IMG/VR virus record: IMGVR_UViG_2513020041_000001
Span: 1 to 7,781 of that record
Length of the DNA: 7,781 nucleotides
Reading direction: 5' to 3' (one strand)
From: a virus
Taxonomy: Monodnaviria; Loebvirae; Hofneiviricota; Faserviricetes; Tubulavirales
The notes beneath the pieces were generated by a model. That model worked only from the letters and a program-made list of their open reading frames with translations. It ran no database searches and was not told the DNA's origin. Positions 1 through 7,781 of this stretch are shown here, in pieces (within the stretch, counting starts at the first letter, position 1; every line of letters begins with the position of its first letter). Position numbers and translations under genes: made by a program.

Positions 1-1269
1 ATGACTCCAACCAGTTCCGATCTGGTCAGAAATGCCGCTGAGGGCTCAGGCGGCGCAGCCGCCCTAGGTAGTATTGCGAAATGTTCTTCCCCCCCCCCTC
101 CGAAGGCAATGAGGGCCCAAAGATACCAAGCTCTTTCTCAGGCTCGGATCTGGTTAAAACCCTTGGCTGTCAAGGATCCCACCAAGCCTTACGGGTGGAA
201 ATTGCACCGCACGCAAGACTGCCGCTATAAGCGGATCGGCATCGGCGTCACCGTGCATAAAGACATCAAGCATCAGACCGCTTTTTACGGCGATGTAGCC
301 ACCTGTGGCTCCGTGTGGGCTTGTACCGTGTGCTCGGCAAAAATTCAGACTCGTCGACGTCCAGAGGTACAGCAGCTGGTCGATTGGGCTTACGAGAACG
401 ACTATCAGGTCACCATGATTACGTTCACGTTCCCGCATCTGGCATTTGATCGCCTGAAGGAACTGCTCGATGGCCAGAAACGCGCCTTTGAGATCCTCCG
501 CGGCGGTAGCCCATGGGTGAAGTTCAAGCAGCGTCACGGCCTTATCGGCTTTGTGCGCTCTCTGGAGGTCACTCACGGCGATAACGGCTGGCATCCTCAC
601 ACCCATGAGCTTTGGATCACCAAGGGGCTCACAGCCACGAATATGGCCACTTTCGAGAGCGGTATCCGCAAGCGGTGGCGGACTTCCTGCATCCAAGCTG
701 GTTTGCTCGATGAAACCTCGAAGGCGCAACTGTTCGCGTTCGATCTGCACTCGGTCGATTTTCAGTTTCAGGTGTCCACCTCTGACTACCTCGTCAAGAT
801 GGATAACGCGCGCAAATGGGGTGTCGATGCTGAGATGACGGCTCAAGCGTCAAAGGTTGGTGGTGATCGCGTCACGAAGACCATTCACCCCCATGAATTC
901 CTGATGCGTCGCGCACCTGGTGATGATGCCCGCTACCGCGAATACGTAACGGGCATGCATGGGAAAAGCCAGCTGTTCTGGTCTCAGCGCCTAAAAGACG
1001 CCTGCGGCGTAGAGCATGTGACTGACGAAGAGATTGCCAAGGAACAAACCGAAAAAGCGGATCTGCTAGCTCACCTGACCGACAGTCAATGGCGTGTCGT
1101 TCGTGGAAACGATGCCCTTGCTGAAGTGCTCGATGCTGCCGAGCTTGGTGGCTGGCCTGCTATCCGCTCCCTGCTGAAATCGCTTGGCTGCGAGATTCTC
1201 GAGACGGATTGTCATGATCCATTTTTCGAGGTCAATCGTGTTCTTTTCGCTCCAGACGAGCAGGTCTAG
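1..1269 (+). CDS. Rolling-circle replication initiator (HUH endonuclease, gII/RstA-like Rep), 422 aa
   Basis: Long ORF with the three HUH motifs in canonical order: motif 1 MITFTFP (nt ~415-435), motif 2 GWHPHTHELWI (nt ~589-621), motif 3 SDYLVKM with catalytic Tyr and Lys three residues on (nt ~784-801). It is the first gene of the unit, upstream of the ssb and coat genes as in filamentous phages. The N-terminal 36 aa are low-complexity (Ser/Gly/Ala/Pro) and include the C10 tract; the true start could be the internal Met at nt 109. Confidence 0.8.
   Translation: MTPTSSDLVRNAAEGSGGAAALGSIAKCSSPPPPKAMRAQRYQALSQARIWLKPLAVKDPTKPYGWKLHRTQDCRYKRIGIGVTVHKDIKHQTAFYGDVATCGSVWACTVCSAKIQTRRRPEVQQLVDWAYENDYQVTMITFTFPHLAFDRLKELLDGQKRAFEILRGGSPWVKFKQRHGLIGFVRSLEVTHGDNGWHPHTHELWITKGLTATNMATFESGIRKRWRTSCIQAGLLDETSKAQLFAFDLHSVDFQFQVSTSDYLVKMDNARKWGVDAEMTAQASKVGGDRVTKTIHPHEFLMRRAPGDDARYREYVTGMHGKSQLFWSQRLKDACGVEHVTDEEIAKEQTEKADLLAHLTDSQWRVVRGNDALAEVLDAAELGGWPAIRSLLKSLGCEILETDCHDPFFEVNRVLFAPDEQV
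1..1269. repeat. Direct repeat copy 1 (identical to 6513-7781): terminal redundancy of a 6512-bp unit
   Basis: Sequence 1-1269 matches 6513-7781 base for base on inspection, and the ORF track gives identical 422-aa translations and identical embedded ORFs for both copies. Confidence 0.95.
89..98 (+). repeat. C10 homopolymer tract in the 5' end of rep (encodes SSPPPP); second copy at 6601-6610
   Basis: Ten consecutive C residues counted at 89-98 and again at 6601-6610. Confidence 0.9.
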
Positions 1270-1426
1270 CAGCAGTTCTTTCGAGGACTTCGTCATATCG
1301 TTTGCTCCTTTCCAGCAGGTATTCCAATGCCTGCGTATGCGTGCAGTCCATCTCAACCTCAAGCATTTTGAGTTGAGTCCAGACTTCCTTTGAAACCGAG
1401 ATGTTTTTAAGCCGATCAGTGGCCAT
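1232..1426 (-). CDS. Ribbon-helix-helix (CopG/Arc-like) transcriptional regulator, 64 aa
   Basis: Minus-strand ORF MATDRLKNISVSKEVWTQLKMLEVEMDCTHTQALEYLLERSKRYDEVLERTAARPARLERKEHD. It has the RHH pattern of a short N-terminal beta-strand with alternating hydrophobics (RLKNISVS) followed by two helices (WTQLKMLEVEM, THTQALEYLLER), closely resembling CopG-type repressors. ATG is the rc of 1424-1426, with GGAG about 10 nt upstream on the minus strand. It is convergent with rep (38-bp 3' overlap) and divergent from the ssb gene. Confidence 0.55.
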   Translation of the reverse strand: MATDRLKNISVSKEVWTQLKMLEVEMDCTHTQALEYLLERSKRYDEVLERTAARPARLERKEHD

Positions 1427-4696: not shown

Positions 4697-5932
4697 ATGA
4701 AAAAACTGATCGCATTCACGTTTTTGATACTGTCTGGATTAGCTCACGCTGAAAACCTGACGCTTTCCTATGATCAAGTGCCCGTCACTCAGCTCCTAGT
4801 CGAAACCTACCGTAATCGACTTGAGAAATCATATGTCATTGACCCCAGCGTTGTTTCCAACAACAGTCTTGTTTCTATTAATGTTCGCGATCTTCCAATT
4901 GAGAGATTGGAATCTACTGTTGATAGCATCCTTAAAACTGCTGGTATCAATAAGGTAGTTGGTTCCGATGGGCTCATTCTTTTCAGCGCTCGCTCATATG
5001 ATTATGCAAACTCTCTCCCTCCCGTTCCAGCTTCTGTTGCTTCTCCTGGTATGGCATCGCTAGGCGCTGATCTTCCACCGGATATCCCTCTTCAAAATGG
5101 GAGTATTCCGGATAACTTCACCATTTTTCTTGCTCATAATCGGCCAACTTCTTTTTTACAGCCAATTGCCAATAAATTGCTTGGTACCAATTACGAACCT
5201 TCCGACCAGGTGTTTTTGTCGGGGGATGCCAAGCAGGTTGAAAAAGTGCGGTTCATCCTGGAGCAGCTCGACACCGCTCCGAATGAAATCATGGCTCAGG
5301 CTGTTGTTCTCGAGTTCTCAACCCAGCGTGTGAAAGGGTCCAGTTTTGAGATGGCAATCTCTGCTTTGTCCGGCCACCTTAAAATCGGTGTTGATTCCTT
5401 GCTCCCTGCCGGTGGGAATTTCATCAAGTGGTCTTCCACGGATCTGACTGCCGTCCTTTCTGCCGTATCCGGTGATTCTCGTTTTCATGTTGTTTCGACT
5501 CCAACGCTGCGCGTTGTTAGTGGTGGTACTGGTCGCCTGTTGGTTGGTCAGGAAGTGCCTACCCTGTCGTCTTCGTCTCTCGATAATTCAGGCAATGCGG
5601 TGCAGTCGATTGAGTACCGATCCGCAGGTGTGATCATGGAGCTGAAGCCCACCATTCTCCGTAATCGTATTGACCTGGAGCTGAATCAACAGATTTCCGA
5701 TTTCGCTCAAAACAATCTTTCTGGCATCGATTCTCCGACGCTGACTAAGCGTGAGTTGACCACCAAAATTTCGGCCCAGCCGGGGGAGCTGATTGTGCTT
5801 GGCGGGCTCGATCAGACGAAAAAAACAGATCAGAGCCGAGGCCTGTCGTTCCTTCCGTCCTTCATGGGCGGTAGCTCTTCAACTGACGCAGATACCCAGA
5901 TCCTGCTGGTTTTGCAGGTAACGAAAATATAG
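4697..5932 (+). CDS. Secretin (pIV/GspD-like outer-membrane export channel), 411 aa
   Basis: N-terminal signal peptide MKKLIAFTFLILSGLAHA. The C-terminal half carries secretin-domain signatures (VVSTPTLRVVSGGTGRLLVGQEVP, EYRSAGVIMELKPTI, GELIVLGGLDQTKKTDQSRGLSFLPSFMG, TQILLVLQVTKI) matching the conserved pattern of phage pIV and T2SS GspD. Confidence 0.8.
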   Translation: MKKLIAFTFLILSGLAHAENLTLSYDQVPVTQLLVETYRNRLEKSYVIDPSVVSNNSLVSINVRDLPIERLESTVDSILKTAGINKVVGSDGLILFSARSYDYANSLPPVPASVASPGMASLGADLPPDIPLQNGSIPDNFTIFLAHNRPTSFLQPIANKLLGTNYEPSDQVFLSGDAKQVEKVRFILEQLDTAPNEIMAQAVVLEFSTQRVKGSSFEMAISALSGHLKIGVDSLLPAGGNFIKWSSTDLTAVLSAVSGDSRFHVVSTPTLRVVSGGTGRLLVGQEVPTLSSSSLDNSGNAVQSIEYRSAGVIMELKPTILRNRIDLELNQQISDFAQNNLSGIDSPTLTKRELTTKISAQPGELIVLGGLDQTKKTDQSRGLSFLPSFMGGSSSTDADTQILLVLQVTKI

Positions 5933-5933
5933 C

Positions 5934-5961
5934 TTTACACGGTAATTACCGGGTCTATACT
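5934..5961 (+). promoter_or_regulatory. Candidate sigma70 promoter with an embedded 12-bp perfect palindrome (operator)
   Basis: -35-like tttaca (5934-5939) and -10-like tatact (5956-5961) with a 16-bp spacer; the perfect palindrome cggtaattaccg (5940-5951) lies in the spacer. It is followed by RBS aaggagg (5974-5980) and ATG 5989. Confidence 0.45.
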
Positions 5962-5988
5962 GGAGCCATATCAAAGGAGGCCGCTACC

Positions 5989-6159
5989 ATGGCAAATCAA
6001 TCCGCATCATCCGAAAAAATGCTTAACGTGAAGGTTCCCGAGGATCTCAAGCAGTCTTTTACGCTGGCTGTTGGGGCTCAAGATCAGACCGTTTCCCATG
6101 TCATCCGCGACTTCATGCGCAAATATGTCGCCCAACATGGTCAGGGGAAGCTGCTGTGA
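5989..6159 (+). CDS. Ribbon-helix-helix DNA-binding protein, 56 aa (absent from the ORF track)
   Basis: ATG 5989 with near-consensus SD aaggagg 8 nt upstream, stop TGA 6157-6159. Translation MANQSASSEKMLNVKVPEDLKQSFTLAVGAQDQTVSHVIRDFMRKYVAQHGQGKLL shows a beta-strand (LNVKV), helix A (PEDLKQSFTLAVGA) and helix B (QTVSHVIRDFMRKYV), the RHH fold pattern. Confidence 0.6.
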   Translation: MANQSASSEKMLNVKVPEDLKQSFTLAVGAQDQTVSHVIRDFMRKYVAQHGQGKLL

Positions 6160-6323
6160 ATATACTTCCGGTCACCCCTGCTTCTGCCGTGGCAAGCGCT
6201 GTCACGTGCCCTTCGTTTTCCCTTGACCCGTCCGTGGTCGTCCTCGCCCTTTTTCTGCCCTTTGTCCTTGTAGGGGCTTACTACCTTTTCCGGCTCGCCA
6301 AGGCTGATCTTCGTGGATTGTAA
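6156..6323 (+). CDS. Small single-pass membrane protein, 55 aa (absent from the ORF track)
   Basis: GTG 6156 overlaps the RHH stop (GTGA), with SD-like gggaag (6145-6150) 5 nt upstream. Translation MNILPVTPASAVASAVTCPSFSLDPSVVVLALFLPFVLVGAYYLFRLAKADLRGL has one hydrophobic helix followed by a basic C-terminus. Stop TAA 6321-6323 is followed directly by a hairpin. Confidence 0.45.
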   Translation: MNILPVTPASAVASAVTCPSFSLDPSVVVLALFLPFVLVGAYYLFRLAKADLRGL

Positions 6324-6325
6324 AG

Positions 6326-6374
6326 CCGGTTCTAGACGCCTGAATGGCTTCATCTTTCAGGTGGCTAGAACCGG
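6326..6374. promoter_or_regulatory. Hairpin: 10-bp perfect inverted repeat with 29-nt loop at the start of the intergenic region
   Basis: ccggttctag (6326-6335) / ctagaaccgg (6365-6374). It begins 3 nt after the stop of the small membrane-protein ORF. Confidence 0.5.
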
Positions 6375-6382
6375 AATCGATC

Positions 6383-6423
6383 TTTCTGTAGACCAAATTT
6401 CGTAGACGTACTTTTTCGTAGAC
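6383..6423 (+). repeat. Three iteron-like direct repeats, TTTC(T)GTAGAC
   Basis: tttctgtagac (6383-6393), tttcgtagac (6398-6407), tttcgtagac (6414-6423), spaced about 14-16 bp apart in the same orientation, upstream of rep. Confidence 0.55.
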
Positions 6424-6447
6424 AAAAAAAAGGCCCCATGAGGGGCC
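6424..6447 (-). terminator. GC hairpin flanked by an A8 run (T8 on the minus strand): terminator-like on the minus strand, or an origin/packaging hairpin
   Basis: A8 (6424-6431), stem ggcccc (6432-6437) / ggggcc (6442-6447), loop atga. Read on the minus strand this is a 6-bp GC stem followed by T8, the canonical intrinsic-terminator shape. On the + strand no T-run follows. Confidence 0.4.
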
Positions 6448-6512
6448 CTTGACACTCGTGAAGCCCCTTTCCCGGCAAGGCGCGGAGCTTCACAACGCAG
6501 GGATATTCTAGC

Positions 6513-7781
6513 ATGACTCCAACCAGTTCCGATCTGGTCAGAAATGCCGCTGAGGGCTCAGGCGGCGCAGCCGCCCTAGGTAGTATTGCGAAATGTTCTT
6601 CCCCCCCCCCTCCGAAGGCAATGAGGGCCCAAAGATACCAAGCTCTTTCTCAGGCTCGGATCTGGTTAAAACCCTTGGCTGTCAAGGATCCCACCAAGCC
6701 TTACGGGTGGAAATTGCACCGCACGCAAGACTGCCGCTATAAGCGGATCGGCATCGGCGTCACCGTGCATAAAGACATCAAGCATCAGACCGCTTTTTAC
6801 GGCGATGTAGCCACCTGTGGCTCCGTGTGGGCTTGTACCGTGTGCTCGGCAAAAATTCAGACTCGTCGACGTCCAGAGGTACAGCAGCTGGTCGATTGGG
6901 CTTACGAGAACGACTATCAGGTCACCATGATTACGTTCACGTTCCCGCATCTGGCATTTGATCGCCTGAAGGAACTGCTCGATGGCCAGAAACGCGCCTT
7001 TGAGATCCTCCGCGGCGGTAGCCCATGGGTGAAGTTCAAGCAGCGTCACGGCCTTATCGGCTTTGTGCGCTCTCTGGAGGTCACTCACGGCGATAACGGC
7101 TGGCATCCTCACACCCATGAGCTTTGGATCACCAAGGGGCTCACAGCCACGAATATGGCCACTTTCGAGAGCGGTATCCGCAAGCGGTGGCGGACTTCCT
7201 GCATCCAAGCTGGTTTGCTCGATGAAACCTCGAAGGCGCAACTGTTCGCGTTCGATCTGCACTCGGTCGATTTTCAGTTTCAGGTGTCCACCTCTGACTA
7301 CCTCGTCAAGATGGATAACGCGCGCAAATGGGGTGTCGATGCTGAGATGACGGCTCAAGCGTCAAAGGTTGGTGGTGATCGCGTCACGAAGACCATTCAC
7401 CCCCATGAATTCCTGATGCGTCGCGCACCTGGTGATGATGCCCGCTACCGCGAATACGTAACGGGCATGCATGGGAAAAGCCAGCTGTTCTGGTCTCAGC
7501 GCCTAAAAGACGCCTGCGGCGTAGAGCATGTGACTGACGAAGAGATTGCCAAGGAACAAACCGAAAAAGCGGATCTGCTAGCTCACCTGACCGACAGTCA
7601 ATGGCGTGTCGTTCGTGGAAACGATGCCCTTGCTGAAGTGCTCGATGCTGCCGAGCTTGGTGGCTGGCCTGCTATCCGCTCCCTGCTGAAATCGCTTGGC
7701 TGCGAGATTCTCGAGACGGATTGTCATGATCCATTTTTCGAGGTCAATCGTGTTCTTTTCGCTCCAGACGAGCAGGTCTAG
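6513..7781 (+). CDS. Rolling-circle replication initiator (second, identical copy of 1-1269)
   Basis: Identical 422-aa translation to the ORF at 1-1269, with the same HUH motifs. ATG 6513 has no obvious SD upstream (gggatattctagc), which adds to the doubt about the true start (alternative Met at 6621). Confidence 0.8.
   Translation: MTPTSSDLVRNAAEGSGGAAALGSIAKCSSPPPPKAMRAQRYQALSQARIWLKPLAVKDPTKPYGWKLHRTQDCRYKRIGIGVTVHKDIKHQTAFYGDVATCGSVWACTVCSAKIQTRRRPEVQQLVDWAYENDYQVTMITFTFPHLAFDRLKELLDGQKRAFEILRGGSPWVKFKQRHGLIGFVRSLEVTHGDNGWHPHTHELWITKGLTATNMATFESGIRKRWRTSCIQAGLLDETSKAQLFAFDLHSVDFQFQVSTSDYLVKMDNARKWGVDAEMTAQASKVGGDRVTKTIHPHEFLMRRAPGDDARYREYVTGMHGKSQLFWSQRLKDACGVEHVTDEEIAKEQTEKADLLAHLTDSQWRVVRGNDALAEVLDAAELGGWPAIRSLLKSLGCEILETDCHDPFFEVNRVLFAPDEQV
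6513..7781. repeat. Direct repeat copy 2 (identical to 1-1269)
   Basis: Exact duplication of window positions 1-1269, extending to the window end. Confidence 0.95.

Follow-up and report, generated by a model that had tools for sequence, protein, structure and literature searches.

Results

The secretin-rep junction of a filamentous phage carries a probable regulatory operon of two genes

We analyzed a 7,781-nucleotide stretch of viral DNA (IMG/VR record IMGVR_UViG_2513020041_000001, hereafter the window), and the results indicate that two small overlapping genes between the secretin gene and rep, together with the promoter in front of them (P1), probably constitute a conserved self-limiting regulatory operon of episomal filamentous phages of the Pseudomonas PMBT54 group. 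The first gene, ORF1, encodes a ribbon-helix-helix (RHH) protein, and the second, ORF2, encodes a membrane peptide that is exchanged for unrelated genes in related phages. Bases 1-1269 of the window are identical to bases 6513-7781, so that rep is written twice; the window thus represents a complete inovirus genome, circular and 6,512 bp long, with a terminal redundancy of 1,269 bp. The module extends from the secretin stop codon to the intergenic region preceding rep, and the initial annotation of this DNA had correctly described it as two genes that are coupled by a GTGA overlap and occupy the stretch separating the morphogenesis genes from the origin. The promoter, palindrome, AAGGAGG, GGGAAG, and GTGA features that it listed are all present where it placed them (coordinates are collected in Table 1). 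It had also called the module unannotated, which is true of the open reading frame track supplied with the window but not beyond it; public gene callers call both ORFs, and RHH homologues are annotated in phage PMBT54 and in a Pseudomonas fulva record. No integrase was seen in the genome, and the lysogens referred to in the initial annotation were an assumption. Below, related sequences are designated by L numbers and homologous proteins by P numbers.

An array of 8-bp boxes overlies promoter P1

P1 is the top sigma-70-like match in the genome and is kept directly 3' of the secretin stop codon in 10 diverged lineages. As previously proposed for this DNA, a perfect 12-bp palindrome lies between its -35 and -10 hexamers, within the 16-bp spacer. 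The genome contains one perfect 12-bp palindrome, compared with 1.5 on average in shuffled genomes; the count is therefore at chance level and only the position of the palindrome is informative. We estimate the chance of the palindrome falling inside this spacer at ~1e-3. The perfect palindrome is limited to the window clade and, independently, to L034, a distant lineage with a different Rep, in which a perfect 10-bp palindrome (CGTATATACG) has the same spacer centre.

Comparison of the lineages points to a more extended site. The palindrome core, Box 1 (GTAATTAC), is the sole exact GTAnnTAC of the genome. Box 2, which overlaps the -10 hexamer, reads GTATATAC in 6 of 10 aligned lineages and in their consensus, and the candidate Box 3 reads GTGCATAC or ..CCATAC in relatives. 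The spacer is more conserved than its flanks (1.15 versus 0.62 bits per column; pairwise identity of 57% versus 35%). Within the 10 aligned promoters, likeness to Box 2 was highest at exactly +/-11 bp (5.1 of 8 positions for Box 1 and 4.9 of 8 for Box 3); among the remaining offsets, the one overlapping the -35 hexamer scored 4.6, the echoes at +/-2 reached up to 4.5, and all others scored 3.9 or less. Overall, the palindrome represents the version that one clade has of a broader motif, namely 8-bp GTAnnTAC-like boxes spaced 11 bp apart over the promoter. Box 2 would also explain an atypical yet conserved C at position 5 of the -10 hexamer.

The same RHH family is found on small Moraxellaceae plasmids. 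In the Psychrobacter plasmid pA27P1, an RHH gene whose product is 44% identical to ORF1 is preceded by exact GTAnnTAC boxes at -58, -47, and -25 and by a copy matching at 7 of 8 positions at -36 (L039 886-1010). This makes four boxes with an exact 11-bp period, including three of the four exact boxes of the plasmid, and is the strongest support for the operator, independent of the phages. Across 15 replicons, the 110 bp upstream of the RHH operon contained 12 boxes, compared with 0.49 expected. An 11-bp period places successive boxes on one face of the DNA helix, a geometry that serves cooperative dimer-dimer binding in Arc and CopG (PMC2724298). We infer that autorepression of P1 by the RHH protein is the best-supported mechanism of the module. 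Thus, the palindromic operator proposed in the initial annotation stands insofar as a protein-binding site within the promoter is supported across replicons, but the operator would be the box array and not the palindrome alone. A second ORF1 operator, at the promoter of the gene for the single-stranded-DNA-binding protein (ssDBP), was considered and rejected, as the likeness was not significant (P = 0.41), no k-mers were consistently common to the two regions in different genomes, and the CGTGTT repeats found there do not covary with the RHH protein.

ORF1 encodes a bare RHH protein

ORF1 has the layout of the RHH fold, i.e. an N-terminal β-strand and two helices within ~45 residues (strand at about 11-16, helices at 18-30 and 35-50), followed by a conserved HGQGKLL tail. 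The window protein matched five RHH families in Pfam, every score being under the cut-off (for RHH_9, PF19839, 19.5 bits and E 8.9e-4 against a gathering threshold of 23.4 bits). Its close relatives matched RHH_9 in 8 of 8 cases (best E 6.5e-7), RHH_1 in 7 of 8, and RHH_5 in 5 of 8, and PF19839 occurs in the precomputed annotation of many of the 51 family members. Consistent with these matches, AlphaFold2 (AF2), run with a 52-sequence alignment, returned a model with a pLDDT of 79 in which an extended segment and two helices reach a pLDDT of 86-92. Together, the Pfam matches, the outcome anticipated in the initial annotation, and the AF2 model make the assignment of ORF1 to the RHH proteins firm at the family level. 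Searches of the PDB with the single sequence and with a profile gave nothing significant, and a scan of IMG/VR with the RHH alignment yielded no relatives.

ORF1 is under strong purifying selection, with a ratio of non-synonymous to synonymous substitution rates (dN/dS) of 0.03-0.17. Nearly all of the 51 family members are 46-89 amino acids long, and most come from short contigs, many of inovirus size (about 7 kb). A conserved YVAQHGQG.LL tail closes the family proteins directly after helix 2, with no further domain, and ORF1 itself ends 6 residues past this helix; short low-complexity tails are seen in a few distant members only and in none of the close relatives.

ORF2 encodes a selected single-pass membrane peptide

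The ORF2 product comprises an N-terminal tail (residues 1-26; rich in Ala, Ser, and Pro, with a net charge of -1), a transmembrane (TM) segment (residues 27-45), and a basic C-terminal tail, RLAKADLRGL. The TM segment is the single hydrophobic segment of the peptide (hydropathy 2.49), and the basic C-terminal tail, by the positive-inside rule, predicts an N-out, C-in topology. The sequence GGGAAG (6145-6150) precedes the start codon, a conserved GTG within the stop-start overlap.

To the reading of ORF2 as a single-pass membrane peptide, substitution patterns add that it is a real, selected gene. In codon-aligned comparisons, dN/dS in the ORF2 frame was 0.14 (L018 versus L019, P = 1.4e-6), 0.34, and 0.39, whereas the five other frames gave values of about 1 or contained stops (about 1.0-1.4 for the stop-free antisense frame). 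Differences in the ORF2 frame fell on the three codon positions 8, 2, and 21 times, respectively, so that the third position dominates. Since synonymous changes appear from codon 5 on, translation must begin at the GTG of the GTGA overlap.

The relatives of ORF2 include one identical version on 13 contigs and two diverged versions with 66% and 56% identity, each located directly after an RHH gene. The homologues are designated P0009, P0010, and P0055. An exhaustive HMMER search of 1.84 billion representatives returned only the representative of the ORF2 family itself and P0055 (E 4e-5), which has the same architecture; the family is very small and consists of four diverged versions with a common architecture. 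Conservation peaks at the juxtamembrane motifs SFSLDPSVVV and AAY..YR..KA.F, the hydrophobic core being less conserved. No match to ORF2 was found in phage and plasmid collections or among toxin and defence families, and PADLOC matched neither ORF nor the alternative cassettes described below.

Several candidate relationships were rejected. The similarity of an L016-type peptide was marginal (E 0.064), and this peptide is not counted as a family member. ORF2 is not recognizable as a coat paralogue, nor did homology searches assign it to any coat-protein family, with hhalign probabilities of 0.3% and 0.1% against the two coat families and no Pfam or PHROG coat match. As for small membrane peptides of Pf phages, ORF2 lacks the YxWGW motif of PfsE and has no similarity to Pf1 orf30, and it shows no similarity to the Pf1 homologue of PftP and overlaps the RHH stop codon, not a zot stop codon.

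ORF2 is exchangeable cargo in a sharply bounded slot

The frame that follows the GTGA overlap is open in every relative, and its contents fall into unrelated groups. The clearest comparison is that of L019 with L003, whose sequences are 95-100% identical on both sides but unrelated from just past GTGAATA to the base of a hairpin, and whose RHH proteins differ at 2 of 56 residues. The left edge of this slot is the junction element GTGAATATAC, which is kept ahead of unrelated cassettes. These data show that ORF2 is exchangeable cargo in a sharply bounded slot.

The alternative cassette of L003 (2236-2412) and L014 (1062-1268) is itself selected (dN/dS 0.35, P = 0.0013) and belongs to a non-membrane family with the motif CVPV..RPG.SVF.SPQ.AF.AYQ. 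A third type of cargo is present in L007 (6699-6887) and L032; the L032 slot holds two small ORFs, one of which is a 26-amino acid hydrophobic peptide. In the P. fulva record (L040 5071-5319), the slot contains an 82-amino acid ORF with two TM segments and an AF..AYQ-like motif; in PMBT54 the frame has 32 codons, no TM segment, and no annotation; and in L033 the slot is empty, leaving the RHH gene alone. Genomes without ORF2 in the slot do not have it anywhere else, and ORF2 accompanies two different structural modules, with a gp8-type coat (L018) and a Coat_B-type coat (the window and L019). On pA27P1, an unrelated 100-amino acid ORF starts 4 bp after the RHH gene, which indicates that the arrangement of an RHH gene plus a variable downstream gene reaches beyond phages.

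Variation is also found in front of the RHH gene. L014 (732-875), L016 (2897-3040), and L018 (458-598) carry an extra 46-47-amino acid ORF between the promoter and the RHH gene, aromatic and hydrophobic in character (MSMFFLFCRVIWNDRDKSVFW...) and 60-83% identical across the three lineages, and L018 has a second promoter copy just before the RHH gene.

P1 transcripts may reach rep

The right edge of the slot is a hairpin, a structure under selection that displays 5 compensatory pairs among its 19, with 98% of cells paired; none of 500 shuffles matched it in any measure. It is 100% identical in L018 and L019, is missing from PMBT54-type relatives, and is probably a packaging or origin element. 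We found no plus-strand terminator between the RHH start and rep in the window and in 7 of the 9 relatives scanned, and no sigma-70-like promoter in the intergenic region in any of 10 genomes (the window and nine relatives). The only canonical terminator, an A8 run with a GC hairpin (6450-6429), faces the minus strand. Because neither a plus-strand terminator nor an intergenic promoter was found between ORF2 and rep, P1 transcripts may reach rep. Furthermore, the order secretin, RHH, variable stretch, and Rep is constant across phage lineages, even those with a different Rep type. A CopG-like role of the RHH protein as governor of Rep supply is therefore plausible.

Discussion

Proposed mechanism of the operon

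We propose that ORF1 dimers would bind cooperatively to the three boxes, which overlie the spacer (Box 1), the -10 hexamer (Box 2), and the transcription start (Box 3) of P1, and would thereby block RNA polymerase and repress their own transcription. For ORF2, ribosomes terminating at the GTGA overlap would reinitiate on the same mRNA, and a common mRNA combined with reinitiation would clamp the ORF2 level low and steady under RHH control. The peptide would insert into the inner membrane with its N terminus out and its C terminus in, as accessory cargo that is neither the toxin partner of the RHH protein nor a part of the virion. Because its juxtamembrane motifs are more conserved than its core, ORF2 most likely binds a specific envelope protein and may act as a modulator of the host surface or of superinfection rather than as a membrane disruptor. 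P1 transcripts would run on into rep, so that the RHH protein may also limit Rep supply, following the logic of CopG and RepB in pMV158.

Several observations weigh against this proposal. Of the three boxes, Box 3 is the weakest in the window itself (AGCCATAT), and a palindromic Box 1 was seen in 2 of 10 lineages only. Box 2 coincides in part with the -10 hexamer, and a box at -8 with the -35 hexamer, so part of the 11-bp periodicity is simply promoter consensus. No clear covariation was apparent by eye between the DNA-reading strand residues of the RHH proteins and Box 1. The ribosome-binding site of ORF2 is weak, and the role suggested for the peptide would draw solely on its architecture and conservation pattern. 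Regarding the link to rep, the His-Gly-Gln codons of the RHH tail contain the -35 hexamer, and the GTGAATATAC junction the -10 hexamer, of a second promoter-like site; this site would start transcripts 3' of the ORF2 start codon and could supply rep without P1. Transcripts might also be stopped or processed at the three intergenic hairpins. Finally, the small plasmids carry the RHH gene downstream, not upstream, of rep, and their Reps are not homologous to that of the window (best E 0.12), which argues that the family is not universally wired in the manner of CopG; for the same reasons, an RHH-Rep module common to these phages and small plasmids was rejected as a candidate.

Alternative explanations

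The initial annotation had considered a toxin-antitoxin-like pair, in which ORF2 would be a membrane-active toxin and the RHH protein its antitoxin and autoregulator, stabilizing the episomal phage. An RHH-first order with a 4-bp overlap does mimic type II toxin-antitoxin operons, NCBIfam and Pfam give weak matches to the RHH part of RelB/DinJ (E 0.002-0.1), and a small membrane peptide of Pf phage, PftP4, is toxic when overexpressed (PMC11769263). However, beyond its DNA-binding fold the RHH protein offers nothing that could neutralize a partner, and a cytosolic RHH protein could not neutralize a membrane peptide by the usual type II route. Moreover, nearly identical RHH proteins sit with unrelated cassettes in L019 and L003, L033 has the RHH gene alone, ORF2 belongs to no toxin or defence family, and its conservation is strongest at the juxtamembrane motifs and not in the hydrophobic core. 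We consider such an addiction pair very unlikely. A role of ORF2 in the virion, as a second tip protein or as an egress helper acting with the hairpin, the RHH gene being nearby by chance, is also improbable, and the extra virion protein suggested earlier is largely excluded. The peptide does have the layout of a mature inovirus coat protein (an acidic-to-neutral N-terminal tail, one TM segment, and a basic C-terminal tail), its gene ends 2 nt ahead of a conserved hairpin that is a possible packaging signal, and the window contains a single ORF of g7/g9 size (1861-1965). Against this, neither coat family is matched, the sister phage L003 shares the structural genes of L019 but has ORF2 nowhere, and L018 has g7- and g9-like ORFs in addition to ORF2, with a different coat, g3, g6, and Zot.

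A different possibility is that the RHH protein serves chiefly in global or immunity-type regulation, as do omega of pSM19035 and Arc and Mnt of P22, its main targets being other promoters of this phage or of related incoming phages and its own promoter being secondary. In support of this view, the authors of the PMBT54 study likened its homologue to omega and proposed, without tests, a role in maintenance or copy-number control (PMC10534721), and a one-mismatch box, GTATTGAC (1493-1500), overlaps the -35 hexamer of the ssDBP-operon promoter. Yet the sole exact box of the genome sits in P1, and one-mismatch boxes number 9 genome-wide compared with 4.9 expected, a count that 10 of 200 shuffles reach. 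The 28-mer likeness to 1485-1512 is not significant (P = 0.41), the three CGTGTT repeats at the ssDBP promoter do not change with the RHH variant and adjoin a separate RHH-like gene (1232-1426, minus strand), and omega-type heptads are absent. We therefore regard a predominantly global role as unlikely. It is scarcely credible, lastly, that ORF2 is non-functional, its frame being open only as a side effect of a structured non-coding region on the origin side. That the post-GTGA frame is open in every relative, unrelated contents included, and that its first four codons are conserved DNA common to all cassettes would fit such an origin, but purifying selection acts in this frame only, with third-position changes dominant, the four diverged members share one architecture, and the antisense frame, although stop-free, evolves at a dN/dS of about 1.0-1.4.

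Comparison with known systems

The RHH proteins of PMBT54 (ORF13, OR047306, "omega transcriptional repressor"; 59.6% identity) and of P. fulva pNY5087-NR (NZ_CP132349.1; 59% identity) are true homologues of ORF1. Their genes occupy the same place (secretin, RHH, rep) behind the same promoter with the GTATATAC box, but the frames after GTGA differ from that of the window (32 codons without a TM segment and 82 amino acids with two, respectively). Omega of pSM19035 binds abutting 7-bp heptads, in contrast to the 8-bp boxes with an 11-bp period seen here, and has no significant sequence match to ORF1; the omega label in the PMBT54 record stems from likeness of fold only. Arc of P22 controls an antirepressor in a tailed temperate phage. 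Neither Arc nor Mnt has a sequence relationship to ORF1, and no antirepressor-type target is present here.

Among characterized systems, CopG of pMV158 offers a partial parallel. This 45-residue RHH protein represses Pcr, from which copG and repB are co-transcribed, and its operator overlaps the -35 and -10 hexamers and engages several cooperatively bound dimers along about 50 bp (PMC2724298). Both CopG and ORF1 are bare RHH proteins with no extra domain, encoded upstream of a rolling-circle initiator gene, and in both cases the operator, here a putative one, covers the -35 to -10 region and comprises several boxes that share a face of the DNA, as would suit cooperative binding of several dimers; in 10 phage lineages and pA27P1, box arrays with an 11-bp period extend from the -35 hexamer to the transcription start. 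Unlike CopG, ORF1 of the window scores below the cut-off for PF01402, GTAnnTAC boxes 11 bp apart take the place of the 13-bp element with TGCA repeats in pMV158, and a cassette gene plus a 190-bp structured intergenic region with the origin separate the RHH gene from rep.

For ORF2, the nearest counterparts in kind are PfsE (30 amino acids) and PftP4 (33 amino acids), which are likewise small, barely annotated or unannotated membrane peptides encoded by filamentous phages of Pseudomonas. PfsE acts through PilC to block type IV pili (PMC8764522). PftP4 is toxic to the membrane when overexpressed (PMC11769263). Phage production does not require it, and its translation is coupled to that of the preceding gene through a 4-bp overlap (PMC11769263, PMC8764522), as that of ORF2 appears to be. 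ORF2 differs in being longer, with a 26-residue N-terminal tail, in having no sequence similarity to either peptide, and in following an RHH gene rather than the zot or ssDBP gene. More generally, regulators of the RHH or helix-turn-helix type are known from inoviruses, as are numerous small TM proteins and accessory genes for toxin-antitoxin systems or exclusion (PMC6813254).

Implications

The proposed operon would provide a concrete regulatory circuit for the poorly studied non-integrating filamentous phages of Pseudomonas, including the milk-spoilage phage PMBT54, and the predicted operator motif (GTAnnTAC boxes with an 11-bp period) would apply also to the RHH family of small Moraxellaceae plasmids. 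The analysis reveals where these 6-8-kb genomes keep exchangeable accessory genes, and adds a family of micro-proteins that is clearly under purifying selection yet escapes the usual length cut-offs. Given that membrane peptides of Pf phages affect pili, superinfection, and viability, ORF2 is a reasonable candidate for host interaction. What is new here is the recognition of ORF2 as a selected gene, of a putative box-array operator common with plasmids, and of a bounded slot, along with the dismissal of ORF2 as half of a toxin-antitoxin pair or as a coat protein; the homologous RHH protein of PMBT54 had been noticed before, the module is of familiar kinds, and current understanding is not overturned.

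A bolder version of the proposal, which we hold to be speculative and rather doubtful as a whole, is that P1 and the RHH gene form an expression platform, the slot from the GTGAATAnAC junction to the packaging-type hairpin being a hot-swap site for small envelope-acting genes of episomal Pseudomonas inoviruses; that ORF2 is the first of a new peptide family whose members bind an inner-membrane machine of the host; and that the transcript feeds rep. If true, ORF2-family peptides would block superinfection or alter the cell surface, and cargo dosage would be hard-wired to phage copy-number control, since the transcript also feeds rep.

Genome context and additional observations

Table 1. Coordinates of the P1-ORF1-ORF2 module and of neighbouring features in the window
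Feature	Position	Strand	Remarks
Promoter P1: TTTACA (5934-5939), 16-bp spacer, TATACT (5956-5961)	5934-5961	+	Sigma-70-like, 10/12
Perfect 12-bp palindrome CGGTAATTACCG	5940-5951		In P1 spacer; imperfect over 18 bp, 5937-5954
Putative operator Box 1, palindrome core GTAATTAC	5942-5949		Spacer 3-10; lineage consensus GTAwwTAy
Putative operator Box 2 GTCTATAC	5953-5960		Spacer 14-21; overlaps -10; 11 bp from Box 1
Candidate Box 3 AGCCATAT	5964-5971		Spacer from 25; expected transcription start; consensus (GTG)CATAC
Shine-Dalgarno AAGGAGG for ORF1	5974-5980	+	Ends 8 nt before ATG 5989
ORF1, 56-aa bare RHH protein	5989-6159	+	Pfam family matches, AF2, dN/dS
Second promoter-like site TGGTCA-N17-TATACT	6138-6166		In 7/10 lineages
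Junction element GTGAATATAC	6156-6165	+	RHH stop, cassette start codon, box-like 8-mer GAATATAC; slot left edge
ORF2, 55-aa single-pass membrane peptide	6156-6323	+	dN/dS, hydropathy, homologues
Hairpin, 19-bp stem	6326-6374	+	Slot right edge; starts directly after ORF2
Rest of intergenic region	6375-6512	+	GTAGAC x3, A8 run + GC hairpin, third hairpin, block before rep ATG
rep, Rep_1-family rolling-circle initiator	1-1269 (= 6513-7781)	+	Pfam PF01446
Antisense gene, 64 aa	1232-1426	minus	Family scans
g4 secretin	4697-5932		Family scans

As shown by family scans, the genome carries the standard filamentous-phage set, comprising Rep_1, ssDBP, a Coat_B-type major coat protein, g3, g6 (DUF2523), Zot/g1, and the secretin. 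The closest named relative is Pseudomonas phage PMBT54, with a nucleotide coverage of 6% only. Copies of the window phage with identical ORF2 are present on at least 13 contigs, with gene order and product lengths mostly unchanged (L023-L031). These copies derive from unrelated runs (several SRR100xxx, SRR096344, SRR1518447, and SRR20754647) and from NCBI contig JH611817.1 (GCA_000252565.1), and their proteins are named in none of these sources; the window phage is either widespread or a recurrent contaminant.

The record NZ_CP132349.1 (L040; P. fulva pNY5087-NR, 7,646 bp) is filed as a non-mobilizable plasmid. Its genes are those for a coat protein, a TspB-like g3, DUF2523, Zot, a secretin-position gene, RHH, an overlapping small ORF, and a Rep 42% identical to that of the window, and its gene content identifies it, in our reading, as an inovirus replicative form. 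In L013 (a Pseudomonas mohnii contig of 21.6 kb), a related phage is present three times in tandem, at intervals of about 7.2 kb. The cassette of one copy has diverged (83% identity), and the arrangement suggests either a concatemer or mixed tandem prophages.

In the intergenic region, GTAGAC occurs at 6388, 6402, and 6418 and is missing in L019 and L003. An A-run with a hairpin is present in every relative whose intergenic sequence was examined, and a nearly invariant block, CAACGCAGGGATATTCTAGC, adjoins the rep ATG and may be the nick site. A scan of the whole genome against Rfam gave no matches. Within rep, a C10 homopolymer (89-98 = 6601-6610; codons for SSPPPPK) may be slippage-prone; PMBT54 has C5 only. 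In L028, a public copy of the window phage, both the Rep and the RHH call are shorter.

The antisense gene overlaps the 3' end of rep and gives weak matches to MatP_C, which is of RHH type; a gene of the same size (62-64 amino acids) is called at this place in most relatives. With this gene, the 6.5-kb genome would have two RHH-like regulators, and the transcript of the antisense gene could run antisense through rep to the minus-strand terminator. Between the antisense and ssDBP genes, CGTGTT is repeated three times with an exact 8-bp period, with inverted ACACG copies downstream (1513-1534 and 1551-1575). The repeats are present in 9 of 9 genomes compared, whatever the RHH variant, with single-base variants in some copies, and are probably the operator of a different regulator.

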